Made by a program: the position numbers and the translations under genes. From the NCBI GenBank assembly GCA_002256025.1, contig NKIB01006909.1:62001-118070 (forward strand): 56,070 nt of DNA. The letters run 5' to 3'. The notes under the pieces were generated by a model. The model ran no database searches. It worked only from the letters and a program-made list of their open reading frames with translations, and was not told the DNA's origin. Each line of letters starts with the position of its first letter. The stretch's first letter is position 1. Source of the DNA: Asterionella formosa (lineage: Eukaryota). This document shows, in pieces, positions 10,546 to 45,922 of this stretch.

Positions 10546-11334
10546 AAGGATAGGTTCCCACCACTGCTTCTTTGGTAACGGTATGCTTGTACTACTGATT
10601 CTTCAAGTAAACCTAGGAGTGCGAAATTGGCGCGCACAGGCGCATTGCGCGCATTGTTCTTGATCAGTGTACTTTACGTAATATTTACCAGTATCAGTAT
10701 AACAGTACCGGTATACCGGTACTGTTGGACTGGAATAAAGTAACTGTAATAATAACTGGTGGGACTCCCCAATAGCATACTGCCTGACGTTAGTAAGAGG
10801 TACAAGTGTACCGGTATGCCAAAAATGGCTCGTAGTTAACTGCAGTATAAAATCACCGACCTATGCCTGGTATTACCGGTACTTAGTATTACCTCACCGG
10901 CATACCGCAGCTGGTATGTACCAGGTACCAGGTACATAGGAGTACAAGGTACCTACTACCAGGTGCCAGTGCTGGTACCAGGTACCTGGTACCTGGTACC
11001 GGAGTTCTTCTGTGCAGGAAGATATTCATCTGCTCTACGTAACGAAGAAAACTTCTTATTTGCTCCTGTTGAATTCTACAGTACTTGGTACGCCCGTTTG
11101 TTGTGAAGCTGCATACATACTGGTAATTTGATTGAATCCTACATACAAACGAAGTAAAATCCGGTATCATGCAGTCGCTATAAAATTCGGTACCGGTAGT
11201 CATTGTCCTCATTTTTGCAATTCAAGTCCTGTCCTGCGCACAAAGTCACCATCGCCTCCCTCATTGTTGTTGTTGGCTTTCGCTCCTGAAAAGAAGCAAA
11301 AGCCAACTTCAAGGTCTGTCTCCTGCAACCAAAG

Positions 11335-12411
11335 ATGAACAGAAAGCTGCTACTTGTCGCTCAAGATTCTATTTCCAAGTATCAGAGCGAGGTTGTCGAA
11401 GAAGATACCCAAGATTGCGCCAACTTTCTCCTGTCGCTTAAGAATAACAGAAACGTTACTCCGGAACCTTCGCCTTCCGTCGCCGAGCACCAAGTGACAT
11501 CACTCTCCGCGCCCTTCAAGATATCTGTTGCTATCAGCGCATACGACAGCGACGACAACTCGCCTTCGCTAATGGATGAGCACGCTGAAATGACATTCCA
11601 GCATCTGCTTGACTTCGGCGACTCGCTGGTCGCGATGAGCGACAGGCATTTGGTACCCGATGCCCTCTTTGTAGCAATGGCGCAGATGAAAGTTGTCAAT
11701 CTTACAGAGTCAGACAGGGTTGGCTGTTACAGAAACCGAGCCATTGGATTCGTTGGCTTAGGCTGCAAGCATTGCGGTGGACAGCCTGGATTCGGCAAGT
11801 ACTTTCCGGAATCTGTGCGCAGTCTTGCACAAACGACCACATCGCAAACAATTCTCAAGCACATTGGCTCCAAGTGCCGGTTCTGCCCTCAGGAAATACG
11901 TCAAGCAGTGAATCGCCTTCAACATCAACAAGCCATCAAGGAAGCTGCCATCGCTGGACGACCTCGATACGGATCACGAAAGGTTTTCTTCCAAAGAATC
12001 TGGGGACGGCTTCACAACGAACCCATTCCTGAATATTCTGGAACTATCCCAACAAATACCGGTAGAGATGTTCTACCTCCTGACGTTAATTTTATCTGTG
12101 ATGGAGCCGCTGCTCCTCCAGTGGAGGGGTCGCTTACCACTTCGTTGTTGGTACCAACTGCTCCTGACAAACAAGCTCCCCCGGTCGAACGTGAAGCTGA
12201 CGATGCATCTACAGGGTCAATGGATAAGGAACAAACTAGTGAAGATCTGAATTTTTCGGATCATACAGGGAAGAAATGTCGCTTTGGTGGTTTGCCGACC
12301 AAGAAGAATCAAATGAAGCGCAAGCAATTAGCCGACAATGAGAAAAGTACTGGTAGCACGCCGAAACGGCCATGCGATTACAAGGTTGGCGGACCTTCAA
12401 CCTTTCCTTGA
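11335..12411 (+). CDS. Diatom-type Cys/His-rich domain protein, putative nuclear regulator (358 aa)
   Basis: Intact ORF. Core LVPDALFVAMAQM...DRVGCYRNRAIGFVGLGCKHCGGQPGFGKYFP...KHIGSKCRFCP...GSRKVFFQRIWGRLH resembles a domain I recognise from uncharacterised diatom proteins. Basic NLS-like C-terminus (KKNQMKRK). Confidence 0.8.
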   Translation: MNRKLLLVAQDSISKYQSEVVEEDTQDCANFLLSLKNNRNVTPEPSPSVAEHQVTSLSAPFKISVAISAYDSDDNSPSLMDEHAEMTFQHLLDFGDSLVAMSDRHLVPDALFVAMAQMKVVNLTESDRVGCYRNRAIGFVGLGCKHCGGQPGFGKYFPESVRSLAQTTTSQTILKHIGSKCRFCPQEIRQAVNRLQHQQAIKEAAIAGRPRYGSRKVFFQRIWGRLHNEPIPEYSGTIPTNTGRDVLPPDVNFICDGAAAPPVEGSLTTSLLVPTAPDKQAPPVEREADDASTGSMDKEQTSEDLNFSDHTGKKCRFGGLPTKKNQMKRKQLADNEKSTGSTPKRPCDYKVGGPSTFP

Positions 12412-13018
12412 TACCACTTTGTTCAATATTATATCACAAGTGTAACATTTCCTTGCAATAATATTTCTAAAACGAACTCGAACTGCAATAGATTTATGTG
12501 TCTGCCGCTGTACTTCAGGTCCTTCTACAATCCGTTCCATCCATGACCGGCTGTGACAATACTAATATGTCTCCGTGGTATGGGGACAAAGCATACCGAT
12601 AATCAATCGCAAAAGCTAACTACCGGTAGTACACTCCCCGGCCTTGGATCATTGGTGTGGTAGATGAAGGTTTCATTCGCGACCGATTGTTTGGCATGAC
12701 TTGGTCCAAATAATAGACTTCACCATGAAGACTCTAAATCAACCCATTTCCGAATTGGGTGGTTTGTGATGGTGGTCCTGTACCATTAACAATACATACA
12801 TACCATCACTGGACTCACAAAGAAAAAAATTGCTGCAGCGTGAATGAATAAAACAGCAAAGAATTATTATATTGGTGACTCTTATGATTCAAGGCGTGAA
12901 AAGACTCAAATAACACTTGGATGACGCAATTGTTTGCTCGGCTTCGGTGTTGCTTCGCTTTTCGAGTCGGACATAAACTCAATTCGAGAGTTTCTGACTC
13001 CTTACAAGGCGCGGAATT

Positions 13019-16000
13019 CTATCTTCCTCCATCCTCAATCGCCTCCGTTAACAACTCGAGTAGCTTATCGACACCGATCAAACGCCACATCGCTTGCCAC
13101 GAGTTGTCAATTTTGGGAGCCTCTTCGGATCGGCGAGCCACTCGATGCATCTGTTCCGGGCCAGCACCATAAGGGAACATACCAGCCTGTTCTGCTCGAG
13201 CATGCATGGCAGTGAGCTCGGCGTCAGTCATGCTAGGCTCACGGCTCATAAAATTGATGCCTTCAAAGACTCTCACTCCCCCTCGCTCCAAGCATTGGAA
13301 CTGAATGGCCTCTTTGTATTCACCTTAATATGTAACACAATGGAATCAGGTTTGAGAAAATTAATTCCACTGCAATAAACTTGATTTCACAAAAATCTCT
13401 TGCTATCTAGAACGAGGCAATAAACAAAAACATTCACATACTAATCAAACATACCTGTTGCGGGGTCTTTTTGAACATCAACAATGTAATTTGGGAACTC
13501 CACACCAAAGCCGCTCTCGCGAAGAATGCCAGGTGGATCATTCTTATCGACACGACCAAAAAGAAAGTAGTGTGCACCGTTTGCAACGGGAGACTTATCC
13601 CATGACAGGGGTGCTGCATCAGGAGCAGGCCCTTTAACTCCAAAGTCATCGGTCCATGCATTGCCATCTGCTGTTACCTGGAGAAGACAAGATTAACAAA
13701 CGATCACATCACGTAAAGCAGCATACCACTTCATCGTCATACTTACCTTGATATCTAGAGTTGTGTCGTATACTTCCTTGAATTGAGTCCAGTCGTGGAA
13801 TTTATGCTCATACCACTTTCCTTGGTACTTTTGAAGATCGAAATTATTCATGCTTGATTGACGGACCTCCTCATAGGCAGGGCATCCTTTCACCACTTTA
13901 CCTTGGTATGGGTCATCCAACGCAAGGTTGTAGTCTCCAAGACCAGCTTGCCCATCAAGACCAGCACCAACATAAGCCAAGAAAGCAGCAAACGCTGCAA
14001 TATTGACAGCGTTACGGATTTCCTTGGAGGTTGTGACTGCTGCAATAGCAACAACATTGGCGGCCACGAAAGTGTAAGGAATCAAGTCAGCGATCTTGGG
14101 TCCTGGACTACCATGTAAAACATCACTGATCCACAAAATGGGCTGAAGTATAGGATGACCCACAGCAAAGAAAATCCAGAAGTTCACGGCAGCCCAGAAG
14201 TCTTCAGGGTTCTCGACGTTGGCTTTCATTTCCAAAACAGAGGAAAAGAAATTTATGAATCCACCAGCATGAATCGCAACAGCTCCCGCACCTATAAATG
14301 TGGCAGCCACGGTAAGAGCGTTATTTGGAATAGCAGCAAGAGGATTGCTGAGACCATCGCTTATTGCAACTTGTTTCGTGCCCGCAACAATTTCGAGCGT
14401 ATCCATGAAGGCATCCGCAAATTTGAAATTCGTTTCGTCGCTTACAATTGGCGACGCGGGGTGGAATGTGCACATCATTTCGCCAGCAACCGTCAGACAT
14501 GAGGCTTGGTACAAGCACCCTGTCCGGGCATGGGACGTTGCAAAATAGATATCTTCAATCTCATACTTGCCGTGCTTGGCCTAGGTACAAGGATAAATGA
14601 TATAAAAATCAGAGGCGTATGCGTAATTCCATTTTGATTTACAAAATCACTTACCTTCAACGTGTCTCGTTCAATATCCCCTTCCCTTCTTACCGCCTTT
14701 TGGCGATCGTAAACCCCCACGTTGGTAACACCGGCACTATAAGCTCTCCCCAGACTGTCTGAAGATTTCGACGTTAGATCGACAAGATTGTTCATGTCAC
14801 TGATGGTCATGGCAAAGTCAAACACGCGGGCAGCATTTCTTGGACCGTCAGATTTGACAAACTCCGAAGTCTGCTCCTTGCCTTCGCGAGCCAATCCCCA
14901 GAACATATTGATTTGCTTCGTCGATGGATTCTGTCGTAGTGTCTCCCCCGATCGATCATCCAACGGGCCGTGCATCAAGTCCATACTTCCAGCCATGCAA
15001 GCGATGGTCTCAGCATTGTCAAGCTGATCCCCAAATCGTTTCATGTCTAGTGATTGAAGAACTTTGTAATTTCTGGATGATCCTGATTTTACGCCGTTGT
15101 CAATAAAGTCGGTCGCAGTCAACGTCATCGCTGCTGTGAGGGCGTTCGTCATCGAAACTCCATTCTGGCGACACTTGGCAAGCAAAGCGGAAGTTGCCTT
15201 TTCTGAAAGCTTACGAAACTGAAGGGTTGACTTGCGTTCTTGGCTCGTTTCGTCGACGCCTCCAGCTGCTTTTCCCGTAATGATTGTCAGCGCTCCTAAT
15301 AAACCACCTCCATCTTTCGGTGCTGTCGAGTCAGGCAATATCACTGGATTCTTTAAACCCTCCCCGGCCTTACCAGCCACATATTGTAGAGTTTCTGGAG
15401 TGAACCCTCCGACTTGAATATCGCTAAAGCGTTTTTTTGACCCCAAAACGGAGTCCTCTAAAGCCATGGGCATTTCGAGCTTTGCAGTTGGTTTCATTTC
15501 TTCGCCACCTTCTAACGCAGCAATGTTGGCAATAATTTGATCAGTCAGCATATTTGCACTCGACTGATCACTAATAGCATGGTTAAAGGAGAATATTATA
15601 GCACATGTACCATATCCACTTTTGGGGCGGTGAAGCTCCATCTTCCATAGTGGTCCTTTTTCGACATTGCACCATGACCCGTTGTCGAGATCCCGCTTGA
15701 ACGCTGCTTCCCAACTTGAATCAATGGAAGATCGATTGCTACCTTCTACTTGCACAATGGTTAATACATCCTTACTAGTGAAGGAAGATTCTGGTGACAC
15801 AAAAGTGCATGGGTTAGGTTCTCCCTTCCGGACCATTTGAAAGAGATCAATCCGTTCGTCAGGCTCGCCATTTCCCTCCACATGACAACGCAACAAAGGA
15901 TGAGACATAATGGCTTGATCAATGGCCTCTCGAAGCAAATTTTCCGGTGGAGTGGCTGATAGAATAGTGCAGCTAACATGATTCATTTGGGGAAATTTCA

Positions 16001-16259
16001 CATCGCCTGGAGCATATTGTCGAGGTAGCATAAGATTTTCCTGAGATCCAAGGACTCGGCGCTCATCCTTAGCCCTTCCAGGCATATTGGACACTTCGTT
16101 AGCAAAGAACATTGTATCCTTCGTTTGCATATAATTTTTGACCAGAGTGGAGATCTTGAGTCCATAACTATTGCTGTTTCGCAGAATATTCTGTCGCAGT
16201 GAAAACGCCGATGCTGTGTTGGTCAAAATCAGCACAGAAGCTGCGGAAAAAGTTCTCAT
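13019..16259 (-). CDS. Plastid-targeted HxxxD acyltransferase (condensation/alcohol-acetyltransferase-like) + transmembrane region + lipocalin fusion, about 988 aa, 4 exons
   Basis: Exons 16259-14655, 14580-13747, 13677-13455 and 13323-13019. All introns are GT-AG (74, 69 and 131 bp); the total is 2967 nt and stays in frame. Signal peptide plus TASA-FSL plastid motif; HPLLR and FNHAISDQSS (HxxxD); a hydrophobic block; lipocalin SCR1 NFDLQKYQGKWYE. Confidence 0.85.
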
Positions 16260-16591
16260 CTTTGCTGGTAAGTCAGCTGCGGGATCGATAACTAAAAATC
16301 AATCAGAAATCAGAGGAGAAGAGCAGTAGCGAGCAGTGAAGACACTACTTAAGAGCTACGTTTTCATTTGGTGGTGAGATAACAGGATTGTTCAAGTTTT
16401 AACAACACATTGAAGTGATTCAAGGATGATCTAAAATATATAGCCACATAATTAATATACCTGATTTTTGAATAGTGACATAAATAGCAGAATCTATGAT
16501 TATGTACATGTCCGTAGATGTTCATAAACTGAAAATCTGTGTGACGACACTTGGAACTCTAATGCTTGAACGACTCCTACCACCTGTACCA

Positions 16592-17231: not shown

Positions 17232-18671
17232 TTAATTTTCCCTGTTCATCATATCTTTCAGTGACTTTGCTTGCTCGTTTGTAATTATGCCAGCAAGGAT
17301 ACCACGTTCCAAAAGGCTAATCAACTCGTCGGAACCACCAGTTGCCTCCTTTAGCGCAGCTTCCAACTCTTGCATTTGTCTCTGAAATCCTGGGTCAACG
17401 CCCTTGGCGCCACCCTCTGGTATTTTGAAGAGGTAAGCAGTGGCCCGAGCGACACGAATTGATGGCGAGTGGACACGAGCAAAGAAATCACACCAAACGG
17501 CAACATCGACCATCAAGGGGACGCAAAGGACTGAATCCATACATCGTGTGTAAGTCATCATGGTATGTGGAGAGTGCAGAAATCCAAGAGATGTGTATTC
17601 CACAACGTCGCGTTTCTCATCCAACATAAATGGCGTGTACATGACGGCAACATGATGGTCCAAGTCATTCTCGTGCCACGGTCCGAAAATGTCTGATTTG
17701 ACTCGTAGCTTGGCTGTGATGGTCTTTTTCGAAGTTAAATTGAGCATATCATTATTTCCTAAGTGATTTGAACTGGCAATGACGCGCGGAGTAAGACCAA
17801 GTGCACGAATGTATTCAACTGCTGCAGTCTTGAACTTGGTCTGGCCCGCCTTGAAGTCAGTTCCTAAGGCATATGCCGGTTGCTTGGAAACATGAGAAAA
17901 TTTGGCCAAGACCTCCGATGAGCTAGAACGATATGAAGATTCGAACAACTCGACCATGGCTTTCGAAAGTGTGTTTTGTGATCCACCGTTGACAAATGAG
18001 CACCCTTCAAGACCAGCAGCAATGGCATAGATAATTGAAGGAGACATGTCACAATCGTCAAAATTATCTAGTACAGCTTGAAGAAGAGCATCTGCTGTGT
18101 GAATCAGGCTAACATCAGCGGGTCTCTCGACGCTTGCTGACCAGATAACAGTGGTATGACCATCAACCTCGTTTTTGCTGATAAAGTTTCGAATATCCTT
18201 GCGTAAATGGTCCACTTTTTGGGCAAATGTAGTCAACCCCGTGACAACATGTGTAGCAGTCTCATACTGTGTCTCTCCAAGAAATGAGGAATCGTAAATG
18301 CCCTTCATGATCTTAATTTGGTTCATATCGTTACGAACTTGACGGACTAGATCGTACTCCAGCACTCGACTATGGTAGAGTGCATCGCCCAAAGGCGTTG
18401 GCCGAATATCCCATCCACCAATCACTAATTCAGCTGCATCCGCCAAGTCGTACCGTCCCTTGAAACCAACGCCCCCATGAGTTCCCTTGGGTTCCAATTG
18501 TGTGATGCACCCATTCCAAGAAGGTGCGCTGACTCTTCCAGCTGCTGATGTTTCCCATTCCAGGCCTCGTTTGTTGGCCATTTGCCCGGCGACTAACGTC
18601 ACTCCATTGTTCCCTCCTAGGCCAACAATCAGGATGCCAGCCGTTTTCGGTGCAGTGGAGTTGGTCCTCAT
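17232..18671 (-). CDS. INO1: Myo-inositol-1-phosphate synthase, divergent (479 aa)
   Basis: GLGGNNG Rossmann motif, [43 protein letters not shown] and DSVLCVP all align to MIPS core motifs. First in-frame ATG is at 18671; the ORF track starts at an upstream TTG. Confidence 0.9.
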
Positions 18672-19003
18672 GGCTGTTTGATAATTGTCTGGAGTTTTTA
18701 CTACCGGTCCTTTCCTTCTTGTTGTTTGTATCTTGTCAAACAATTGTTGTGAAACATGATTTCGCTTTGTTCAAAAATGATTCGTTCGACAGTATGATAT
18801 CATGACCGTTGTGCGTGATGTTAGGTGCGGTTGCATCACCTTTCTAATAGTAAGGGATTCATAATTTATTAATATACTCATATACGTATATATGTACCGA
18901 TTGTTGATCTTGCTTTGCGGCCAATATATTTGTCACATGATCATGATCATGCTTCACCGCTGCCGTTCTTTGTTAAGCGCCTGCCTCCGACGCTGATCAT
19001 GCA

Positions 19004-20705: not shown

Positions 20706-22316
20706 CTACCTTCTTTCCTTTAGGTAGGGACCAATCGTCATTGGTTGCAATTTTTTTCGAATCCACGTTCGAAGTTTCACCGAACCAGTGTTTGTGGAAT
20801 CAAATTTTCGGGCAAAGAGGAAGCCCATCTTCTTGGCCTCCACCAAATAGTACTTGAGATCACGCGCCTTAACATTCAAGCCTTTGGTGAAATTCCAATG
20901 GATCCTAGCATTTCTGTCGCCTAACACATAACAGGAAGTATTGTCCACCTTCAAAAGAGCGTTGCTCATTGTATGCTTACATCCTGGCAATCCGCTCCAG
21001 AATTGTAGCATACTGCCAGTCGCAAGCGTTTCCTCTGCTAGACCGATCGCTTTCATTGATCCATACCATACCAGCTCTTCCAAACAACAACAGCAACCAT
21101 ATTTGGACGAAGCCATAACCTCCATTGCATCAACGCTCTCCAAGAGTGCCTTTACTGTTGCATAATCAAAAATCCCCTGATTGCCAGAGTTACTCTTCTT
21201 ATTAAACAATTCCATGATCTCTGGTCGCATTGGTAAATCTAGGTCCGCCCTTGATTTCGAAGCTTTCAATGGGTATTCTTTGGATTTTTGACGAGAATAG
21301 GTGAGAGCGATTCTCCCGAAGTGTTCTTTTGAGATGTTTTTGGCAAAATCGTTAGCAATTTCTCCCATAAATACCTTCCGACCAGACAATTGCAACGCCT
21401 GGGCCAATTCCATTGCTGAATAAAGTGGGTACACAGCACCTCCCAATGCGAGAAAGTACGAAAACGTTAGACCAGAATCAAACACGAGCCAACGCATTAT
21501 ACGGAGATTGATATCTGTCACTTGACCGGTTTTGTACACAATACTTCCGAATTTCAAAACAACGACATTCTCGTACTCCACGGCAAGCTCCCTTACACCT
21601 TTTTCGAAATCAGGATTTGTGTAGCGTTCTAAATGAATGATGATGTAGTGTTGGGGCAAGTGGACTCCCTTCAGCAAAAGTTTCAAGTGTTTAATATCTT
21701 TGTATGCCACAATGGCTATTGCCAAACGAATAGTGCTCGTGTCCACGTGTAATACATTTCTGAGTATAGCTGCTGCTTGTTCTGGATCTGCCTCCTGTCG
21801 AACTGTAGGTTTATAGAGGGCATAATCACAAAACCTTGAATGGTTGGAGGCATAGATCTCCAATAGTTCCAACTTCATTTCATGTCGACCATCGAATCGC
21901 GTTCTTGTTTTGGGAAAGTTTGTCAGATTTCGTGGCATGGCAATAGACGTAAAGTCGTAAACATCATTCCAATCCACATCTTGAAAGTTGCAATGGTCTA
22001 AGTATGCTGTATCGGACCAGGAGGAAGCCCGATACCCTTGAGTCACCGGATCGATAGACAGGGCCTGCTGCAGGAACTTGTTCTCTGGAAGTGGATGTAC
22101 GGGTAAGATAATGTACTTCTCTGCAGCATTCGTTACTGGTGTCAGATTCTGGTTTTTCGCTTTAATCGCTTTTAACGTGGTGCGACTATCATCAACTATG
22201 AATGTATACCACAATAGTAGACTAGACAGAGAGATGATTCCAACTAGAAGGCTTCTAATCGCCCATTTTCTTGCGTGGGCGAATTGTCGCTTTTCCTCGT
22301 CCTGGTCTTGTTTCAT
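20706..22316 (-). CDS. GT14 (core-2/I-branching/xylosyltransferase-like) glycosyltransferase, copy A (536 aa)
   Basis: N-terminal TM helix, RLAIAIVAYKD...HYIIIHLE, LALGGAVYPL, CLEE and FLFARKFD typical of the Branch family. Confidence 0.8.
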   Translation of the reverse strand: MKQDQDEEKRQFAHARKWAIRSLLVGIISLSSLLLWYTFIVDDSRTTLKAIKAKNQNLTPVTNAAEKYIILPVHPLPENKFLQQALSIDPVTQGYRASSWSDTAYLDHCNFQDVDWNDVYDFTSIAMPRNLTNFPKTRTRFDGRHEMKLELLEIYASNHSRFCDYALYKPTVRQEADPEQAAAILRNVLHVDTSTIRLAIAIVAYKDIKHLKLLLKGVHLPQHYIIIHLERYTNPDFEKGVRELAVEYENVVVLKFGSIVYKTGQVTDINLRIMRWLVFDSGLTFSYFLALGGAVYPLYSAMELAQALQLSGRKVFMGEIANDFAKNISKEHFGRIALTYSRQKSKEYPLKASKSRADLDLPMRPEIMELFNKKSNSGNQGIFDYATVKALLESVDAMEVMASSKYGCCCCLEELVWYGSMKAIGLAEETLATGSMLQFWSGLPGCKHTMSNALLKVDNTSCYVLGDRNARIHWNFTKGLNVKARDLKYYLVEAKKMGFLFARKFDSTNTGSVKLRTWIRKKLQPMTIGPYLKERR

Positions 22317-29377: not shown

Positions 29378-30997
29378 TCAGGTGGTGATATTGTATCTTC
29401 TTTCCTGGTTTGTATAAGGACCAACCATCAATGGTTGCAAGTATTTTCTAATCCACGTTCGAAGTTTCACCGAACCAGTGTTTGTGGAATCAAATTTTCG
29501 GGCAAAGAGGAAGCCCATCTTCTTGGCCTCCACCAAGTAATGCTGGAGTTCAGGCCCATAAACACGACCAATCTTCCATGTGAACCTGGCATTTCTTTCT
29601 CCTAATAAGTAGCAAGAAGTGTTATCAACCTTCAAGAGTGAATTGCTCATTGTATATTCACATCCTGGCAATCCGCTCCAGAATTGTAGCATACTGCCAG
29701 TTGCAAGCGCTTCCTCTGCTAGACCGATCGCTTTCATTGATCCATACCACACCAACTCTTCCAAACAACAACAGCAACCATATTTGGACGAAGCCATAAC
29801 CTCCATTGCATCAACGCTCTCCAAGAGTGCCTTTACTGTTGCATAATCAAAAATCCCCTGATTGCCAGAGTTACTCTTCTTATTAAACAATTCCATGATC
29901 TCTGGTCGCATTGGTAAATCTAGGTCCGCCCTTGATTTCGACGCTTTCAACGGGTACACTTTGCAATTTTGACGAGAATAGGTGAGAGCTATTCTCCCGA
30001 AGTGTTCTTTTGAGATGTTTTTGGCAAAATCGTTAGCAATTTCTCCCATAAATACCTTCCGACCCGACAATTGCAACGCCTGAGCCAATTCCATTGCTGA
30101 ATAAAGTGGGTACACAGCACCTCCCAATGCGAGAAAGTACGAAAACGTTAGACCAGAATCAAACACGAGCCAACGCATTATACGGAGATTGATATCTGTC
30201 ACTTGACCGGTTTTGTACACAATACTTCCGAATTTCAAAACAACGACATTCTCGTACTCCACGGCAAGCTCCCTTACACCTTTTTCGAAATCAGGATTTG
30301 TGTAGCGTTCTAAATGAATGATGATGTAGTGTTGGGGCAAGTGGACTCCCTTCAGCAAAAGTTTCAAGTGTTTAATATCTTTGTATGCCACAATGGCTAT
30401 TGCCAAACGAATAGTGCTCGTGTCCACGTGTAATACATTTCTGAGTATAGCTGCTGCTTGTTCTGGATCTGCCTCCTGTCGAACTGTAGGTTTATAGAGG
30501 GCATAATCACAAAACATTGAATGGTTGGAGGCATAGATCTCCAATAGTTCCAACTTCATTTCATTTCGAGCATCGCGTCGCATACTTTCGTTGCGAATAT
30601 GGGTGAGATTTCGTGGCATGGCAATAGACATAAAGTAAGAGACATCATTCCAATCCACATCTTGAAAGTTGCAATGGTCTAAGTATGCTGTATCGGACCA
30701 GGAGGACGCCCGATACCCCTGAGTATCCGGATCAATAGTCAGAGCCCATTGCAGAAATTTGTTGGGGTGTACTGCACCAATGAGTTGTTCGCGCGCAGAG
30801 GAGTAGAGCGCTGATAGACTTGAAGACACATTCAGCTTAACACTGGTTTTTTCAAGCGTCATCTGGTCTGCATTTGCAATGAAAATGATCCAGATAAGGA
30901 AACTCGATGCAAGGCTAATGCTGCTACCAACGAAGCAATCCCCAGTCACGCGTCTCATGGTGCTCTCGAACTGTCGTTCATGCTGGTTGAAAGTCAT
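29378..30997 (-). CDS. GT14 glycosyltransferase, copy B (539 aa)
   Basis: Catalytic region nearly identical to 20706-22316 but with a different N-terminus and TM helix. First ATG at 30997. Confidence 0.8.
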   Translation of the reverse strand: MTFNQHERQFESTMRRVTGDCFVGSSISLASSFLIWIIFIANADQMTLEKTSVKLNVSSSLSALYSSAREQLIGAVHPNKFLQWALTIDPDTQGYRASSWSDTAYLDHCNFQDVDWNDVSYFMSIAMPRNLTHIRNESMRRDARNEMKLELLEIYASNHSMFCDYALYKPTVRQEADPEQAAAILRNVLHVDTSTIRLAIAIVAYKDIKHLKLLLKGVHLPQHYIIIHLERYTNPDFEKGVRELAVEYENVVVLKFGSIVYKTGQVTDINLRIMRWLVFDSGLTFSYFLALGGAVYPLYSAMELAQALQLSGRKVFMGEIANDFAKNISKEHFGRIALTYSRQNCKVYPLKASKSRADLDLPMRPEIMELFNKKSNSGNQGIFDYATVKALLESVDAMEVMASSKYGCCCCLEELVWYGSMKAIGLAEEALATGSMLQFWSGLPGCEYTMSNSLLKVDNTSCYLLGERNARFTWKIGRVYGPELQHYLVEAKKMGFLFARKFDSTNTGSVKLRTWIRKYLQPLMVGPYTNQERRYNITT

Positions 30998-32575
30998 CTT
31001 CAATGATTCGTACTAATGTTAATGCAAGTGAACAGAAACAAGAGGAGCATTGAGGACTCGTATGAGAGCATCCAATGGAAACTGAAGAGAGATTTCTGCT
31101 TTCTTCGTGAGCAACATACCGGTAGCGGTGTGAGGGCAACATTGTAATTATATTGGAAAAATACTAAAAAGTCTTGATTTACATTTGTTGGAGAAATTAT
31201 TTCAGAAGACATACCCGTTTTGAAATTACCTACATATATAATATAATACACATTAATTAAATCAAAGGAATCAAAAAGAATGTCAAGATCAGAATTCGAA
31301 AACAACCTGCACATCAAGTAAAACTCATCATTCTATTAAATCTTTTAGGAATGATTACAATCAACCGTTGTTTATATCTACAGCATATTTGGTCCCTGAT
31401 GTGTCCTTATGATCCTTAAAGGAGTACAAGAAAGCAATAGAAGGCTTTGGGACGCAATCTCAACAACATATATAAATTACAGGTATACCGGTGCTGTATT
31501 CAATTGTCTAGCTTTATTTGTTGAGAATATCACAGATCTTCCTTTTAAGATCACTAAAGCAGAAAGTATATTTTCAATTTACACTTTGTAATATTGTGAG
31601 CTATCTGTTAATTGTCTATCTGTCTTGTTCTTGAATGATTACTCATGTAATCCTGAACAAGACATCTCACACTTTCTTTGATCTCATTAATATGATCTTG
31701 CTTGCTTTGACAATAAGTAAGCATATTCATTTGACAACAAGTAAGCATCTCAATTCATTTGTCTATAAGTGTTGTATGTCTTGGTTTCCAATCACTAAAA
31801 ATATTGATCCTTAACTTGTTGGATTCCATACATTTTATCAGTGCTGTACCTGATTGTACCATCAGCCATCAGGTATTATGCATCCCAGTGAATAAGGTTT
31901 TTCTTGTGCCGCTCATTTGCATGAGATACCATAGTATTTTTCTATTTTTTAAGTTGCATAGCAACATATGACTGTCTATTTCCTTGCAGAAACTCCTCAG
32001 ACTACATCTAGTCTTTGGTCACCTGCCAACATCAACAGCCTAACAGACAAATTCTGCCAATACATGCAAAATTTTCGCTGCTCCGTTGCTATCTGTTGGC
32101 AACCAGCCTGATCAAGTGCTGTTTCAACAATGGCTCTGGACAATGATCAACAATCAATAACACCAGTTCGAACCACTCTTCAAAAAACGAAGAATTGTGG
32201 TGCATATACCTTTGTGAAATAATACCACTATTCTGCCAGATGGATGTGTTCTCACCATCTGCAGAGTCTGCACCCAACCTCCATTGGTGTGCTGCACTGG
32301 TAACCCTCTGTCGCCTTTTCTTCGAGCTCCCCGGGTACATATTGTCCACTGTTTCCAAAAAAAACCTGCTTAGCTTGTACCACGTCCGGGTGGTCGCATG
32401 CCTGCGATTTTACATTTGTTCGAGACTGGGTGGCGAGAGTAGGTTGACCGACACATGTTGCCTTAGACGAGCGCCCATCGAACTCATGTATAAGGTATAT
32501 TATATAGAGATTTTTTTTAGATCATTTTTTTATTTTAATTATATACACGATAAGCATATGATCAATAGTTTCAGA

Positions 32576-35159: not shown

Positions 35160-38100
35160 TTAGTCCAACGTTTGCTGGGTCGGTCCGCCAACAAGGCCAT
35201 TGCGGACAGGTGGTTTCATCTTGAAAATCTTTAATAAGGCATCCGGTTTCAAGGCAGAAAGATCTTGAGGGGTAATAAAAATGAACTGTCGGTGTTTCAT
35301 TTCCTTTGCCACTTCCACAAGGGAATTCAACGCAATCTTTCGAGCAACTGGATCGAGAAAGACATCGAATTCATCCATCACTCGGAAAGGAGTTTCCAGC
35401 CGCTCCCCGAGCGCAAGAAGAAGTGCAAGAGTGGTGAAGCTTCTTTCTCCTCCACTCAAGGCCTTGACATCCTTTGTCTGACTGGTGGGGTCCTCATTAT
35501 CTTTTTGAACCACTAGATTCAAAGTACCTTGTTCTTCTCCATCCTTTGTAGGATGTGAAAACTCGAGTTCACCGGAACTTCCCTTCTTTTGAAGGAATTC
35601 GTCAAATGATTCGTTTGTCATTCTAACGATGTGCTTACGGAATTGTTTCCAGCGCCTCTTGCGACTCTTCATGTCATCTTGCAGTAACGCAATGTTGACG
35701 TTGATTGCTTCAATCTGTTTCAATTTTCCATCCAAGGACTTACTAGCCCGAGTGTATTTGTCCAAAGCAGCTTCGGCAGTAGTTTCTGTCATTTGCTGTC
35801 GTTCTTTCTCCTGAGCAATCTTCGTCTTTTGTCGCTCAATCTTCCTTGCATAACTGTCCACTGAATTCGGCACGGTTTTGATTTCAACAGCCTCAAGTTC
35901 CATTTCTGTTGGAGCAATATATTCAGGAGTTGATGCTTGAGAATCCTGCGAAGCCTGCTTCTGTCTGCGAGCAAATTCACGGCTGAGATGCATTGTGCGA
36001 GCTCGATTCAAAGCAATGTCACGAGTTGCTTTCTTTTTCGCGACAGCGGTCATCTGGTCCTGAATAGCCTGATTCATCAGTGCGATTTTCGCTCTCCTCT
36101 TCTCCAAATGAGCGCTGCGTTGGGACAAGGAGGCCAAATATTGGGCAAGGTCGTCTTCGACTTGTTGCAAATCAGCAAGGACTTTGTTATTGCGAGTCGT
36201 TACCTCAAGCAATCGCTTCTTCACGTCTTCAACAGATGGAACTAACTCGTCAACCTCCTGCTGAAGTGCACATTTATTCTGCACTAATCTATCTAAAGTA
36301 AGCTCGGCAGCCGCTACGTCCTCCTCAAACTCGGAAGTGTCCTGAGCAAAATTGGCAGCATTCTCTTCCTCGGCCTTGAGAATTTCGCGGCGTTCTTCGA
36401 GTGCTTCAATTTCATCAAGGCAACCCCTGCGCTCTCGCTTGACTTCGTTCCACTTCTTCCTGTAGTCTGTGTGTTCTTTTTCCAGGCGCAACTGGGTTGC
36501 CTTCAGTTCCTTGATTTCATCTTGAAGAACAATCATTTCCTCCTTTGCACTTGTAACTGCTGCTGTCTTGTCGACGCCAATGGAACGCTTCAGTCGCCTT
36601 TCGTTCGAAACAATTCCAAGAGAACCGTTATTGACTTTCCAACTGTCGCCATCGGGCAGAGTGAAAACTTCCGTAATAACACCACCTCGAATCACTAGAC
36701 GACCATTTTGTTCAATCAATAGAGCAGTTTCACTAGCTTCTTTTGATGTTCCCAAGGCACGTTGGTCAATGCGAGAATTGTCCACCAAGCAGTTGTATAC
36801 CAAATCATCAGCGACTTGCAACACTGTATCGACCGTCTCTGTGCCTTCTGGAGGTGGATGAATGTTGAACCGCGGGCCATTGTGCATCTGAAAGATATTG
36901 CACTCTTGAGGTCCGCATGCAACTTGCTGACGTACCTGCTGCAACAGCCGACGATCATCATCGTTGGTGACAATGAATCGATCCAAGACACCTGTCCCAA
37001 TTGCCAACTCAGCGATCTCCGCCAAATGTTCCTTTCCCGCCACAATTTTGATGGACGCGCCAATCGGTCCTACAACAGGTCCTTTCCACTTGTCACGCAA
37101 TGCAGCCACTCGCTGATACACCATTGTGCACTTGGGTCCAAATTGAGCGAGTTGGTTGCTTCCTGACTTGTTTAGCTCCTCCACTTTCGAGAAAACTGAA
37201 AGGTACTGAGAATGTCTAGAGGATGTGTTGCTCTTGGCCTGTTCGACATGGGGTTCCAACTCTTCATACTTACGCAAAAACGTAGACGTGTCTTGTCGAC
37301 ACCTGAGCTCTTGTTCACGTAAGACATGTAAGCGAGCATCTGTTGTCGATAGTTCGGCTTGACGCTTAGCAGCATCCGAAGCTTCTGACTGCATTTGAAT
37401 CCTAGCACGCTCTTGTTCCAATCGGGCTTGTGCGGCTTCAACATCGTCTTTTGCGGTCTTGATGTGACGCTCCATCGAGTGCAGTTCTGTAGTCTTGGAC
37501 CTAATAGGGGCTTCGGCGTGTTTCAATTCCAATTCGAGAGCACGTTTTTGTTCGGCAGCACCAGAGGCTTCTACCGAAAGATCGTTCATTGTGGCGTTGA
37601 GGCGAGCTTGCGTGTCATCCACATCGTCTTGGGTTTCGAGTTGTGTGAGTTCTGCTTCTCGTTTCGCCATTTTGGTCAAGGCATGGGCGAGGATCTAATG
37701 CATCAATTTTGCACATGGAGTGTTAAGCCATGAAATGATTTATGTTTTAAAATTTTCAAGAAAGGAAACAAACTCACCTGTTCTTGATCGACGACGTCCA
37801 TGTCAAAATCGCGAAACGTTGCCCAGCAAAGGTCCAATGTAGTCTCCGCCACAACATCTTCCATCTTGTCCAAAGCTTCAAATTGCTCCCACTCCTTTCT
37901 AAGCTTCTTAACCATGGCAATGGCAGAATGCATCGTTTGTTCGACAGATTCCTTTCTTGTCTTGAGGTCGTTGATGTTGTCGACGGTATTGGCATACGAA
38001 CGGTCAATGCGTTCAAGTTCAGTGGCCTTTGTGAAAAACGCATACTTGTCTTCCGGTTTGCCCGTCAAGAATTTCTTTGCTGCCTCGTAGCAAATTAATT

Positions 38101-38830
38101 AAGCTGTAAGTTATCGATTCATCGCTATCCAGCGAAATGCAATTCAGTAACAGTACAAAGGATCTGTTCACGTACCTTCTTCCTGGTCCAACACCGCAAC
38201 TGGATTCTCAACTTGAATATTGAGCTGATCGAGCATCGCATCCAAGTCTTTCTTGAGTCTAGATCTTTCCTTTCCTTCATGATCCAACAAACGGTAGCCA
38301 TTGTAACCTCCATTTTTGCTGATGCTCCGCTCCACAGTAATGGAATCTCCATATACATCGGTCTGGAAGCCATCTGGTCCCCTATTCAACAGAGTCACTC
38401 TGACCTTGGCATTGCCTCCTTCCCCGCTCTCCTTTCGCACCAGCTCTTTCAAATTTCGAGCTCTATGGGTGCGTCGTGCTCCGGCCCCCAAACAAATTTG
38501 GATAGCTGCAAGGATGGCTGACTTTCCGGACCCATTTTGTCCATGAATGAAATTGACGTTGCGGCACAACTCAACTGTGAGCTTGCGATGACACATAAAG
38601 TTCTCCACTTGCACTCTGGTAATGATTCCAGCTTCTGGTGGTTTCCCCGCAGTATTGATGGGACGGAGGGGTGATGAGAGAGGCGGCTGCACCCGCTGAT
38701 CCTCGTCATCAGAATTATCGAGGCGTCGGCGCTGCGGTGGTGATGGCGATGGAAGCACTGAAGACGAAGCATCATGGTTGTACTCGTCATCGTCTTCACG
38801 GATGGTTCTTTTTCCAGAGGTACTTCTCAT
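35160..38830 (-). CDS. SMC6: Structural maintenance of chromosomes protein 6, 3 exons (about 1163 aa)
   Basis: Exons 38830-38176, 38079-37778 and 37694-35160 (3492 nt, in frame). ENFMCH, Walker A GQNGSGKS, LDQEEAKKFL, coiled coils, hinge GPIG, signature LSGGERSF, Walker B MDEFDVFLD, and QFIFITPQ. Confidence 0.95.
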
Positions 38831-39300
38831 AGTGCGGTCCTTGTGTATGCGGTCTTGAAGGAGACAAAGATTGACAATGGCGACGATGCGTGCTCCCGCA
38901 AACTCTCAGGCAACGTCTCTACACTGATTTCTGAGAAATCTATTTTTGCAAATGATCATTATTTTTGGCGCGAACTACGTACGAAGCCAGACCAATCACG
39001 TCCCTCACGCACCAGCATGAGCCATCCCTACTACCAGCAAAAAAATACCTGGTATGATGGTATTCTTGTTACCAGGTTCAGTAAACAGTATCATACCGGT
39101 AGACAATGATACGAAGTATCCACCGTGGTGCTCAAGATTAGGCATTGAGGAGAGCACGACTAATCGACCACAGCGACATCCATCCATAGCGCTCGCCTAA
39201 AGTTATCAAGCACAAATCAATATATGTGTAGGTCTAAAGCAATTTATTAATCTAGATGGTAGCCATCATTATATTCTCGTATGCAAATTTCGTAGACTGA

Positions 39301-40676
39301 TTAAGCCTCCTTATCAATCTTCGCTCGCAAAGCAGCATAAGTCTTGAGACGAACACTGTTAATACGGATGAATCCTTGAGCATCCGCAGGGTTGTAGTCA
39401 AAGACGTCACCACCTCCTTCAATCTCCATGGATGCCAAGTCAGCATTGTACAAAGCCTTGGCTGACTTGCGCCCACTGATGGTGCAGTTACCCTTGTACA
39501 GTTCCATCTGTACGACACCTTCAACATCGCGTTGAGAAAAATCGATCGAGTGACGGATCAACTCCATTTCAGGAGCAAACCAGAATCCATTGTAGCACAA
39601 GCGAGCGAATTCTGCCGACAGACCTTCAGTAATGCGCTTGACTTCACGATCCATGCAAATGCCCTCCAAATCCAAATGTGCAGCACGCAACAAGGTTCCT
39701 CCTGGTGTTTCGTAAACACCGCGAGACTTGATGCCCACGAAGCGGTTCTCGACAATGTCGATGCGGCCAATACCGTGTTTGCCGGCCATGTGGTTGCAAT
39801 AGAGAAAGAGATCCAATGGATTGGTTTTGACTGTTCCGTCGCTCATGTTGGTGACCTTGGTGGGAATACCCTGTGAGAATTCAATCTGAAGGATTTCGGA
39901 TTGCTCAGGAGCATCCTTGGGGGAGACAGTCATTTTGAACATGGAGTCGTCGGGGCCGCACATGGCGTCTTCGAGCATACCAGATTCGTCTGCAATAGAA
40001 AGGAAACTGATTGTGTGAGCTAAATGGATCTGCATAGATGTCGAGCATATTCAGAGCTTCCAGTATGCATCTCCATGCCACGTGCACGGGCTAACTTACA
40101 AGACGTGTGATACAAGTTCTCATCGACACTGTAATTGGCCTTTGGCTTAGCATCGACGGGAATGCCATGCTTCGTGCAGTAAGCCAACAAGTCTGAACGT
40201 CCTTTGAATGACTCGATGAACTCAGCATCACGCCAAGGAGCGACTGTCGAGATAGTAGGACAGAGCGCCTGAGCGCACATTTCAAAGCGAACTTGATCGT
40301 TTCCCTTTCCGGTAGCACCGTGGGCCACGTACTTAGCGCCTTCTTCAATGGCAATTCTGATCATTTCCTTGGCGATGCAAGGACGGGCAATTGAGGTTCC
40401 GAGCAAGTATCGAGATTCGTAAATTGCATTACATTTGATGGCTTCGAAGACGTAATTCTCAACAAAGTCAGCACGAAGGTCAGTGACGATGCACTTGAGG
40501 GCGCCGCAATTGACAGCCTTTGCTTGGATCTTGCTGAAGTCTTCCTCGAACTGACCGACGTTGGCGCAGAAGGCAATCACGTCAAACCCCTTCTCGATGA
40601 GCCATTTCAGAATGACTGACGTATCGAGGCCTCCAGAGTAGGCGAGGATGCACAGTGGTTTCTTATCGTCAGACAT
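39301..40676 (-). CDS. ASS1: Argininosuccinate synthase, 2 exons (421 aa)
   Basis: Exons 40676-40100 and 39989-39301; the splice restores HTSYESGMLED. Motifs [24 protein letters not shown] and [17 protein letters not shown]. Confidence 0.97.
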
Positions 40677-41329
40677 TGTTGTTGAGTATTGTAGTATACC
40701 GGTAGGAGAAGGTGCGATTGAATTTTATGAGCCGGATGGGTATATGTGGGTTCGAAAGTTGTGATCTTTCTCGTCGAGCACCTGTATAAAATGCAGGAAA
40801 GATTTCTTCCATTTTATTGGCTACAACAAGAATTAATATTCTCGCTATATTTAAGACTCGACATTCCTAAATGGAGAGCCATTCTTGTGAGGAATTAGAA
40901 TGTTATCTGACCTCGTATTCGATTTTAGATGGTCACAAGGTCGAGAACCACGAAAATGCACAACGCGGAGGACCAGCGAACTGGCACTTTGTTCCGATCA
41001 TGATGTATCTGCACGAGTGACCGTCGACTGGAGGTCACTACCACATGTACATACCGCTATATGTACGTATTTGTTATCTGTGTGCGTGTAATAAACGTTG
41101 CATACGTTTACATCAAATCATATCGAGTTCCTGGTGCCAGGTGTACCATTAATATACTCTACCGGAATATCCTGAAAATACATTCCGTTGAGGACAACGA
41201 ATCTTGACTCCTCGTCACCCGCAGTTTCATTTCTTGTTGCAGGTTTTTTCATTCTCAGCATCATCCGAAGAATTTTGCTATAAAGAATTTCATGATTTGC
41301 AACTCGGCTATAGAAATGTCCACTAGAAT

Positions 41330-42581: not shown

Positions 42582-44230
42582 GGTGATGCTGACGAGAAGG
42601 AAGTGGTAGGCAACTGCAAGCTTCTATTTCCTTGGATGAATGATGGCGGCGTTGTAACTGTGGAATGTGTACCGGTACCCGGTTTTTACCAGTGTACCGG
42701 TACCGTGGTTGACCGGCATGACTCAAATGTACGTTCCAGGCACCGCTATATTCATATAAATACCGGTAGCATTGTTCATACATAGCTGCAAAATGGTTCT
42801 TATGACAGACTCATGGTCAAAATAGTACCAGGGGTACAGCAAAACTGTATACCGGTAAATTGTGGCAAATTGCTAGATAATTAATATTCATGTATAATAT
42901 AGTATTATATTAGAAATGAAGGACACACTGCTTCTAATTTCCCGTTGTTCAACATGCCCATTTTGGGCTTTGCTTGAGCCTCTGCTCTCAGGTCATCTCT
43001 CTCACCCCCTTCTCACCCCACCTCACCACTCTACCAGCTTGCTCTCACTGACATGACACATGTCGATTCACTGAACATGTCACTCTCCAAGCTATGCACA
43101 GAAAAAGCCAACAACTGGACTGCATAACCCAGTGTGGGCACTGATTTCAAGTGGCATGTGCCCATACCAACCTCAGCTAGTAGGAGTACTACTGTGTCCC
43201 TCCCTCTCCAGCACCCTCTCTGCCCACCACCTACCTTGTTCATCACGATCAGTTCAGGGCTTCCACAGCAAAGTGAAGAAGCGATCCTCCCATGCAGATG
43301 GTACAGATTTCTCCCACTCGTTCTCTTCAAAGAAGAACACCTCTAATCTACTGTCAGCCATATGAATCCATCAAAACCCATCAAATTCACTCTGCCTCCC
43401 TGAACCAAAAATCTCTGTTCCTCCTCCTGTCAGCTCCTTCCTCTCCAACTGCTCCTTCTTTTGCCCCCCTATGACACAAATTATTTTCATTTGCAGCCTC
43501 GTCCAAAAAGGCAGGCAGACTGCCATGGCCAACAATCAATACATTTGCATTATACTACTAGCTCACATAGTACCACACCAAAACCAATCAAGAAATCTCA
43601 ACTAGTGTGGGGCCAAAAAGGAAATCTTTGATACAATCAACACTCACAATCTAATTCTCAGGCTGACATGAGAAGTGCAGACATTGAGAATCGAACCAGG
43701 AACAACCCTACTATCATAAATTTTTTACTACTAGCCAGTACTTCCACATCAGGAAGTGACTACTGCCCCAAAATTCCGCTGCCCCACCATTTTGTCGCCA
43801 TTTATGGCCCATGGAGCACAAACAATGCAACTCTAGAAATAGAATGGTAAGAATGTTCTATAAAAATGGCTGCCAGTAATTTTTTTAGTAGTGAAGGATG
43901 TACCGGTATACAATAAACTGCATGAAAACCAGTAGACTACGTATTTTAGGGTTAAGGTTAGAATTAGTATTCGCCATCGTGGTGCATACCGGTATATTAT
44001 TACCGGTAGTTCGTAATCTACGTATGTATAACTAGACTCCAGAAAAAGTAGTACCTGGTATCATACAACCGGTATTCCAGATACACCAGTGGTATGATTA
44101 TGGCAACCGTGACAGACGGTTAGAATTGAATTCAATTGTTGGCTGTTTCTCTCCCGCACTCACAGCAGCTTCCAATCATCCTCGTCTCGTTCTATTCCAA
44201 CAGGAATAACAGCAGACAGTAGTATATAAC

Positions 44231-45922
44231 ATGGTATTGGCTGAACTCGGAGGGAAACTGCGCGAATCTCTTCGCAAGCTTCGCGAAGGAAAAGTAGATG
44301 AAACACATTTGAATGTGTTGCTGGCTGATATTTCTCGTGCGTTGATCGAGTCTGATGTCAACGTCAAACTCGTGATGCAAGTACGAGACCGCATCAAGCA
44401 GAAGGTCTTGGAGGTTATCCATGAATCTCCGAAAACGATAGTCACCTTGGTCCAACAAACGGTTGTCGCAGAATTGACCGCATTGCTCAGTCCTTCGCCT
44501 ACCAATCAGAAAGCCTTCACGGTCCGTCGAGGAAAACCCAACATTATATTGTTCGTTGGATTGCAAGGTGCCGGAAAGACTACTACTATTGCCAAGGTAG
44601 CATCATATTATCAAAAACGAAACTATAAGACTGCCATGGTCTGTGCGGATACCTTTCGTGCCGGGGCATTTGATCAATTGAAACAAAATGCTACTAAATT
44701 ACGAATTCCTTTTTATGGGTCATACACGGAAGCAGACCCGGTGGAAATCGCAACGTTGGGAGTAGCACAGTTCAAACCTCAGTATGAAGTTATTTTGGTG
44801 GACACGTCTGGACGTCATAAACAAGAAGCGTCGTTGTTGGACGAAATGCAAGAAATATCTCAAGCCATTCATCCAAATATGACTGTGTTTGTCATGGATG
44901 CCACTCAAGGACAAGCTGTGTACGATCAAGCCAAAGCATTTGCTGCAGCTGTAGATGTCGGAAGTGTCATCGTCACGAAACTCGATGGACATGCCAAAGG
45001 TGGTGGGGCCCTGTCGGCTGTGGCAGCAACAGACAGTCCCATTTTGTTCTTAGGATCTGGGGAACATTTTGATGATTTGGAAACGTTCCATGCATCATCT
45101 TTTGTCAATAAATTGCTTGGATATGGAGATATGCGTGGCTTCATGGAAGAAATGAAATCCATGAATGAAACTGGTGGACAAGAAAAAATGATAGAGAAGC
45201 TGGTAAAGGGAGAACAGTTTACGCTTCGAGACATGTATGCGCAATTCAATAAAGTTCTTGGTATAGGCCCAATGTCCAAAGTTATGGGAATGATGCCCGG
45301 AATGCCGGACTATTTGACCCCCAAGAGTGGAGATAATGACCAAGCCACCAAACAATTACGAAAATTCATGATCATGATGGACAGTATGACAAATGCGGAA
45401 TTGGATGGAGTTTTTGACTTTGCATCCAAGAAGACATCTGCTGCCGAATTGGAATCACGCATTCATCGAATTGCCCGTGGATCTGGATCTCATCCGAAGG
45501 AAGTACAGCTATTGCTTCAAACACATGGTCAGTTGGGAGGAGTGATGTCGAAAATGGGCAAGAGTTTTGGCAAGGATGGTCAAAAGAAACAAGCCATGTT
45601 GGCGCAACAAATGAAAAAGAATCCCAATGCTGTAATGCAGCGTTTAAATCAAATGGATCCACGAATGTTGCAACAAATGGGTGGGAAGGATGCTGTCATG
45701 GCTATGCTAAAGGGTGGTGGTGGTGGAGCCGACGCGCAACAGGCGGCCATGGAAGCAATGATGGGTGGGGCTGGTGGTGGTATGACTCCTGGTAGCATGC
45801 CGGCGGGATTTCCACCAATGCCTCCTGGTATGGATATGGAGAAAATGATGGCAATGGCGCAACAGATGGGTTTGGGAGGTATGATGGGAGGGATGCCTCC
45901 AAACATGGGTGGACGTAGATAA
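44231..45922 (+). CDS. SRP54: Signal recognition particle 54 kDa subunit, cytosolic (563 aa)
   Basis: MVLAELG start, GLQGAGKTT, DTFRAGAFDQL, DTSGRH, TKLDGHAKGGGALS, RIARGSG and a Met-rich M domain. Confidence 0.97.
   Translation: MVLAELGGKLRESLRKLREGKVDETHLNVLLADISRALIESDVNVKLVMQVRDRIKQKVLEVIHESPKTIVTLVQQTVVAELTALLSPSPTNQKAFTVRRGKPNIILFVGLQGAGKTTTIAKVASYYQKRNYKTAMVCADTFRAGAFDQLKQNATKLRIPFYGSYTEADPVEIATLGVAQFKPQYEVILVDTSGRHKQEASLLDEMQEISQAIHPNMTVFVMDATQGQAVYDQAKAFAAAVDVGSVIVTKLDGHAKGGGALSAVAATDSPILFLGSGEHFDDLETFHASSFVNKLLGYGDMRGFMEEMKSMNETGGQEKMIEKLVKGEQFTLRDMYAQFNKVLGIGPMSKVMGMMPGMPDYLTPKSGDNDQATKQLRKFMIMMDSMTNAELDGVFDFASKKTSAAELESRIHRIARGSGSHPKEVQLLLQTHGQLGGVMSKMGKSFGKDGQKKQAMLAQQMKKNPNAVMQRLNQMDPRMLQQMGGKDAVMAMLKGGGGGADAQQAAMEAMMGGAGGGMTPGSMPAGFPPMPPGMDMEKMMAMAQQMGLGGMMGGMPPNMGGRR

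Follow-up and report, generated by a model that had tools for sequence, protein, structure and literature searches.

Until April 2026, the pathway that makes fucoxanthin and peridinin, the chief light-harvesting carotenoid route of marine algae, lacked a known enzyme for its acetylation step. The locus described here raises the question of whether it encodes that enzyme in another diatom, and what the rest of its unusually composed product is for. It lies in a stretch of 56,070 nucleotides (nt) from Asterionella formosa (assembly GCA_002256025.1, contig NKIB01006909.1, positions 62,001 to 118,070), which we refer to as the window and within which all positions below are counted. A first-pass annotation, made from the letters alone, had proposed that a gene at 13019..16259 encodes a plastid-targeted fusion of an HxxxD acyltransferase domain and a lipocalin, a candidate enzyme for acylating a xanthophyll or lipid, and had pointed to the acetyl ester of fucoxanthin. 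This core proposal agrees with what has been published for an ortholog in Phaeodactylum, the xanthophyll acetyltransferase XACT (PMC13080032). Judging from sequence comparison, the window gene is very probably the ortholog of the Phaeodactylum tricornutum enzyme (PtXACT), that is, the diatom XACT. The enzyme itself is already known, its characterized ortholog having been published (PMC13080032). The window contributes another diatom XACT ortholog, with splicing verified by RNA, and draws attention to a helix-plus-lipocalin module, which is the best conserved part of the protein and could still matter.

Orthology to the xanthophyll acetyltransferase XACT

PtXACT (Phatr3_J36932) was described as a xanthophyll acetyltransferase by Cao et al. 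(PNAS April 2026, PMC13080032). Its knock-out loses fucoxanthin and accumulates fucoxanthinol, and the recombinant protein acetylates fucoxanthinol, phaneroxanthinol, and allenoxanthin with a strict requirement for acetyl-CoA; acetylating activity was shown for PtXACT and the enzymes of four other species (PMC13080032). According to the same paper, XACT orthologs are confined to lineages with acetylated xanthophylls, and the lipocalin is found in diatoms and their close relatives (Diatomista) and in dinoflagellates (PMC13080032). Among the papers listed since 2023, we found no other relevant one on a xanthophyll acetyltransferase. The parts of the window gene that bear on its identity are the following:

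13019..16259, minus strand: whole coding region of the putative XACT ortholog, 988 amino acids (aa), four exons and three introns (frame, splice sites, RNA contigs, identity to homolog P0010)
16206..16259, minus strand: putative signal peptide, aa 1-18, ending in ASA with F at +1, a diatom plastid-type cleavage motif (translation read by eye)
15567..15581, minus strand: HxxxD catalytic motif, H227-A-I-S-D231 (translation; H and D present in 71/71 aligned sequences)

With exon 1 as query, 8000 candidates were scored, of which 70, with lengths of 936-2670 aa, reached E <= 0.001. Every named one is a diatom protein, the identity to exon 1 being 40-64%, and several were derived from transcriptomes flagged as complete. 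Some of these homologs could be tied to Dataset S3 of the XACT paper: P0042 (Psemu1|297863) and P0028 (CAMPEP_0185733512) are best-hit PtXACT orthologs there, P0068 (Fracy1|183807) is a redundant sequence of the Fragilariopsis entry, and P0044 corresponds to the Nitzschia inconspicua row of 1030 aa, a match by species and length only (PMC13080032). A further homolog, P0010, has 1020 aa and carries L153-H154 within HPLLH, as given for PtXACT (PMC13080032). Over 943 columns, the window protein and P0010 share 65.7% identity; the identity of the window protein is 57-69% to the set P0010, P0042, P0028, P0044, and P0068, and 68.5% to P0002. The assignment to XACT follows from these three observations: the presence of homologs in Dataset S3, the fit of P0010 to PtXACT, and the 65.7% identity.

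The enzyme domain points the same way. The first-pass annotation had read an HxxxD domain in the motif NHAISD (aa 226-231), and this reading is borne out by the invariance of H227 and D231 in the 71 aligned sequences and by the predicted fold of a homolog. L123 of the window protein corresponds to the leucine found essential in PtXACT (in HPLL) and is conserved in 70/71. When the exons of the window were scanned with Pfam, Condensation, PapA_C, and AATase all gave matches below threshold; AATase (PF07247) was above its cut-off in three of the five homologs scanned. The full-length model of P0002, built from a 66-row alignment, reached a predicted local distance difference test score (pLDDT) of 80.1 and a predicted template-modeling score (pTM) of 0.65. 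It matches condensation and acyltransferase folds (8s6l, E 6.4e-21, TMt 0.84; also PapA5, 1q9j), as well as the trichothecene 15-O-acetyltransferase TRI3 (3fot, E 6.7e-17, TMt 0.67). At the level of sequence, a profile of the full alignment gave a weak PapA5-type match alone against the PDB sequences (E 0.0048). Membership of the BAHD family, which had also been considered, did not hold: the Transferase family profile (PF02458) had no match at E <= 1 on exon 1 or the five homologs, and the domain is AATase/condensation-like. AATase is likewise kept separate from BAHD in PMC13080032.

The N-terminus carries MRTFSAASVLILTNTASA followed by FS, which we read by eye as a hydrophobic signal peptide with an ASA-F cleavage motif. 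A crude regular expression for a hydrophobic run followed by small-x-small-aromatic was satisfied by 28/71 sequences, some of which are possibly incomplete at the N-terminus (66/71 begin with M). Signal peptides were reported for 18/18 XACTs, and transit peptides were predicted for 14/18 (PMC13080032).

The helix-plus-lipocalin module

Downstream of the enzyme domain, the protein continues into a hydrophobic region and a lipocalin, both of which had been named in the first-pass annotation and both of which stood up to closer analysis. Their main features are as follows:

13951..14325, minus strand: hydrophobic region, aa 621-745, made of four uncharged helices in which H677 and H691 are nearly invariant (hydropathy and charge, alignment, model helices)
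13807..13842, minus strand: first conserved lipocalin motif, FDLQKYQGKWYE, aa 782-793 (translation; aligned to the Blc motif)
13229..13893, minus strand: lipocalin barrel, approximately aa 765-920, interrupted in the gene by introns 2 and 3 and containing the nearly invariant C768 and C898 (fold matches of homolog P0075, conservation)

The four uncharged stretches of the hydrophobic region are kept in fused and free forms of the module, with a constant Arg opening the fourth helix. Topology was judged by hydropathy and charge counts, which fit three or four spans as well as a monotopic arrangement. With four membrane spans, both domains would share one side of the membrane; if three rather than four helices span it, the barrel would lie on the lumenal face. 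The Cys pair of the barrel, together with a single basic turn, gives a weak hint of the latter arrangement. The placement of the two domains on opposite membrane faces, raised as a possibility in the first-pass annotation, is not supported as it was put. The helical part (P0075 residues 1-135) had no usable match in the protein atlas, and the fold lists were occupied by the barrel. Kinship of the helices with a bacterial DUF2878-lipocalin protein was considered on the basis of one atlas structure row (TM 0.31), and this lead was dropped because none of 55 module sequences had a DUF2878 match at E <= 10.

The barrel is clear in structure and faint in sequence profiles. The module model of homolog P0075 (55-row alignment; pLDDT 92.1, pTM 0.88) consists of six helices followed by a barrel, in which a fold test found the eight strands plus helix of a lipocalin. 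Its closest match was ApoD (Z 17.0, root mean square deviation 2.6, 159 aligned residues), followed by a Plasmodium lipocalin (16.8), crustacyanin (16.7), TIL (16.5), Blc (16.4), and the VDE lipocalin (15.5), and Foldseek concurs. In the window protein, GKW at aa 789-791 is the G-x-W of the first lipocalin motif, and the lipocalin region is 75-89% identical to its homologs. The barrel Cys pair (C151 and C281), near-invariant among the 71 diatom sequences, is invariant in 55/55 fused and free module sequences; such a pair is typical of secreted or lumenal lipocalins and may correspond to the disulfide of ApoD. Where bit scores were given, Pfam Lipocalin_2 (PF08212) did not reach its gathering score of 24 (12-15 bits in homologs, 13.0 in P0075), and it matched 39/55 module members at E <= 10, with a best E of 0.0021. 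A module profile searched against the PDB sequences found Blc at E 0.2, which is not significant; the weak matches were colinear. VDE membership, suggested earlier alongside BAHD, had to be given up: Pfam VDE (PF07137) appeared in 1/55 module sequences at E 0.21, the Cys-rich N-domain is absent, and the barrel is ApoD/Blc-like.

Based on the PtXACT work and on the models, we propose how the parts could act together. Once inside the plastid, the AATase-type HxxxD domain at the N-terminus would move an acetyl group from acetyl-CoA onto a xanthophyll hydroxyl, as mass spectra indicate for PtXACT (PMC13080032). Going by the ortholog, the substrates would be the late allenic intermediates fucoxanthinol, phaneroxanthinol, and allenoxanthin, and the products fucoxanthin and acetylated precursors. 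The C-terminal part is predicted to form one compact module, with the four hydrophobic helices packed on an ApoD/Blc-type barrel. Speculatively, this module might hold the enzyme at the plastid membrane and bind a hydrophobic ligand, the simplest version being a xanthophyll substrate or product bound for the antenna.

Several points weigh against this reading. The function of the gene in A. formosa is deduced from orthology, and Pfam AATase on the window's own exon 1 scored 16.0 bits against a cut-off of 22; AATase was also under the cut-off in P0044 and had no match in P0071. A second, shorter, lipocalin-free homolog that is 36-38% identical to PtXACT is listed for Thalassiosira and Cyclotella (PMC13080032), so XACT paralogs exist. 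The anchoring and binding role suggested for the module is speculative, and Domain 1 was sufficient in PMC13080032. In that paper, Domain 1 alone rescues the mutant and works in vitro, with only Km shifts when the lipocalin is missing. Thus, the coupling of acyl transfer to ligand binding that the first-pass annotation had put forward is not required for acetylation. Full-length PtXACT was moreover purified from E. coli as a fusion with maltose-binding protein (PMC13080032), which sits uneasily with four true membrane spans.

A serious contender, which we lean only slightly against, is a bifunctional protein, in which the enzyme acetylates xanthophylls, the module has an unrelated job, and the fusion merely coexpresses two partners. 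That job could be photoprotection of the kind provided by LCNP, protection of lipids, or delivery of pigment to fucoxanthin-chlorophyll proteins. The unevenness of conservation favors this explanation. Mean pairwise identity among the 71 diatom sequences is 0.57 in the enzyme domain, 0.63 in the hydrophobic region, 0.84 in the barrel, and 0.75 in the C-terminal tail, so that the lipocalin, reported as dispensable in PMC13080032, varies far less than the enzyme part. The invariance of the barrel Cys pair across fused and free forms favors it as well, as does a lead, which is no more than that, from language-model neighbors: those of P0127 are plant chloroplastic lipocalins (score 0.85). Tight conservation could also mean a structural or regulatory role inside XACT.

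The module also occurs without the enzyme. We searched for proteins shorter than 544 aa and obtained 695 matches among 7390 candidates, many of which are gene-call fragments; the forms described here are from 120 listed matches. Among these, complete free helix-plus-lipocalin proteins are present in three forms. One is a large clade of the free module that includes Prymnesium parvum P0159; for the XACT of Prymnesium, Dataset S3 records no lipocalin (PMC13080032). A second is a diatom paralog clade (P0138 from Attheya, P0162, P0178, P0185, with a signal peptide ending in ATSF, and P0191), in which WYWHKVH replaces WYEHKFH. The third is a split form, P0084, which has its own presequence, falls next to Odontella within the clade of fused diatom proteins, and is probably a secondarily split gene. 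This branching comes from a midpoint-rooted FastTree tree without support values, from which three sequences lacking the anchoring motif were left out. Fusion of the module to the enzyme, or separation from it, has happened repeatedly. Its family is narrow, with few relatives: a search with exon 2 found 189 representatives at E <= 0.001 among 1.84 billion proteins. An organism name is attached to few of the stand-alone proteins, a point against the bifunctional reading.

The rescue experiment itself can be read in two ways. Domain 2 alone gave no pigment rescue, and we found no further trait reported for it (PMC13080032); the module has no known phenotype, which speaks against a separate function. 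On the other side, the mutant used for the Domain 1 rescue, S32, carries one +1 allele and one in-frame -3 bp allele (PMC13080032). Because the -3 bp allele is in frame, the module was possibly still made: a full-length protein that was catalytically dead, yet had its module intact, may have been present during the rescue. Taking both sides together, we regard it as quite possible, and somewhat less than probable, that the C-terminal 370 aa are no XACT accessory and form an autonomous lipocalin of the plastid membrane, restricted to certain lineages and having a function of its own. Its function may be to hand acetylated xanthophylls to the antenna, or photoprotection like that of LCNP. The words transmembrane, membrane, thylakoid, and stand-alone have no occurrences in the main text of PMC13080032, and the interdomain hydrophobic region, the uneven conservation, and the stand-alone module were not found in that main text. 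Among literature titles on lipocalin, diatom, and plastid, the module is treated nowhere apart from PMC13080032.

It is very unlikely that the window gene is instead an XACT paralog whose substrate is some other hydroxylated lipid or pigment, outside the fucoxanthin pathway. HxxxD enzymes of the same fold do accept many substrates, and a second family member is present in some diatoms (PMC13080032). However, the published second copies lack the lipocalin and are just 36-38% identical to PtXACT (PMC13080032), whereas the window gene encodes every part of the architecture and is 57-69% identical to proteins linked to Dataset S3 or to the PtXACT data, and there is no second copy within the window.

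Gene model, transcripts, and neighboring genes

The open reading frame (ORF) pieces at this locus had been proposed to form a single frame of 988 aa once three GT-AG introns are removed, and both a script and RNA contigs confirm it. Splicing the four minus-strand exons by script gave a coding sequence of 2967 nt and 988 aa with a single terminal stop (TAG, 13021-13019), and all three introns (74, 69, and 131 nt) are bordered by GT..AG. Position 16259 belongs to the first in-frame ATG past the upstream stop (stop-to-stop minus-strand frames, 13019-16298). Homologs of approximately 1000 aa align unbroken over all three exon junctions of the spliced model.

Of 20 listed public sequencing runs, 18 contain the stretch of the gene or part of it; 17 of these 18 are recorded as RNA, and they come from 15 studies. 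Contigs from four runs (X2, X5, X6, and X7) were compared with the gene. X5 is RNA by guess only, yet its contig is spliced. The gene is laid out as follows, all on the minus strand:

14655..16259, minus strand: exon 1, aa 1-535 (535 codons), putative presequence and most of the acetyltransferase domain (ORF and translation, splice check)
14581..14654, minus strand: intron 1, 74 nt, GT..AG (spliced out in X2, X6, and X5 contigs)
13747..14580, minus strand: exon 2, aa 536-813 (278 codons), end of the acetyltransferase domain, hydrophobic region, and first lipocalin strand (translation, splice check, homolog alignment)
13678..13746, minus strand: intron 2, 69 nt, GT..AG, with an in-frame stop (spliced out in X6, X7, and X5 contigs)
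13455..13677, minus strand: exon 3, aa 814-888, ending in phase 1, middle of the lipocalin barrel (translation, splice check)
13324..13454, minus strand: intron 3, 131 nt, GT..AG (spliced out in X6, X7, and X5; kept in one X2 contig; read through by P0334)
13019..13323, minus strand: exon 4, aa 889-988 and stop, final barrel strands and a conserved helical tail ending in EDGGR (translation, homolog alignment)

The RNA contigs omit exactly the predicted introns, the 131- and 69-nt introns in X6, X7, and X5 and the 74-nt intron in X2, X6, and X5. Every joint is seen, and a single X5 contig (3211 nt, spanning 12940 to beyond 16400) holds all three. A poly-A contig from X2 reaches from 13743 past 16400, covering the acyltransferase and the hydrophobic region as well as the first lipocalin strand. 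A false join of two neighboring genes, one for the acyltransferase and one for the lipocalin, is hardly credible: gene callers do often split this gene, with many entries of 540-600 aa representing exon 1 only and many of 200-450 aa the C-terminus only, and a contig spanning two genes does not prove a single transcript, but the spliced contigs preserve one open frame over each joint, complete homologs of 980-1011 aa derive from transcriptomes (P0014, P0029, and P0037), and neither a stop nor a start lies between the domains across 70 homologs.

Intron 3 gives a mixed picture. A second X2 poly-A contig (1889 nt, mean depth 346; 11791-13679) is unspliced through it, from 12900 to 13679, ends at the exon 3 border, and extends leftwards across a neighboring plus-strand ORF. 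A public protein of 891 aa, P0334 (99.2% identity over 890 aa), enters the same intron and ends in GMFD followed by a stop, losing the final 98 aa of the lipocalin. Together, the contig and P0334 could reflect a retained intron, pre-mRNA, or a convergent transcript that overlaps the gene. As a separate observation, a 373-aa ORF at 11290-12411 on the plus strand, convergent with the XACT gene, lies under this high-depth contig and has no Pfam match at E <= 0.001.

The other features named in the window are:

17232-18770, minus strand: myo-inositol-1-phosphate synthase ORF, long, directly upstream of XACT and in the same orientation (Pfam NAD_binding_5, E 6.6e-56)
20706-22316 and 29378-31012, minus strand: two Core-2/I-Branching glycosyltransferase ORFs, 536 and 544 aa, with the domain equally positioned in both
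35160-38905, minus strand: SMC/Rad50-like ATPase, two ORFs
39301-40724, minus strand: argininosuccinate synthase over two adjacent frames
44210-45922, plus strand: SRP54-type GTPase, 570 aa

The two glycosyltransferase ORFs are possibly a local duplication, and the frame split in argininosuccinate synthase is probably an intron or a frame change. No carotenoid gene is among the named neighbors of the XACT gene in the window.

Comparison with known systems

The closest known system is PtXACT, with which the window protein has in common a putative presequence, the AATase HxxxD domain, the C-terminal lipocalin, and the essential Leu; it differs in coming from another diatom species and in being known by sequence only. 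More widely, yeast-type alcohol acetyltransferases (PF07247), TRI3, PapA5, and the condensation domains of nonribosomal peptide synthetases share the two-lobed HxxxD fold and the use of acyl-CoA. Likeness in sequence to AATase, condensation, and CAT-like proteins is marginal, at 16-28 bits, with 9-15% identity in the fold matches. None of the AATase/condensation-type relatives listed has a membrane-lipocalin module.

On the lipocalin side, ApoD, Blc, plant TIL, and the chloroplastic LCNP share with the window barrel the eight strands, the motif FD..KY.G.WYE, the preceding Cys, and the C-terminal helix. Unlike these proteins, the window protein has four hydrophobic helices ahead of its barrel and a conserved tail of 70 aa behind it. 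VDE, VDL, and VDR are likewise plastid proteins of lipocalin fold that act on xanthophylls, and the VDE lipocalin is among the matches of the P0075 barrel at the Z of 15.5 given above. In contrast to that family, the XACT module has hydrophobic helices before the barrel in place of a Cys-rich N-domain, and it lacks the Glu-rich tail. The XACT barrel is nearer to ApoD and Blc than to VDE.

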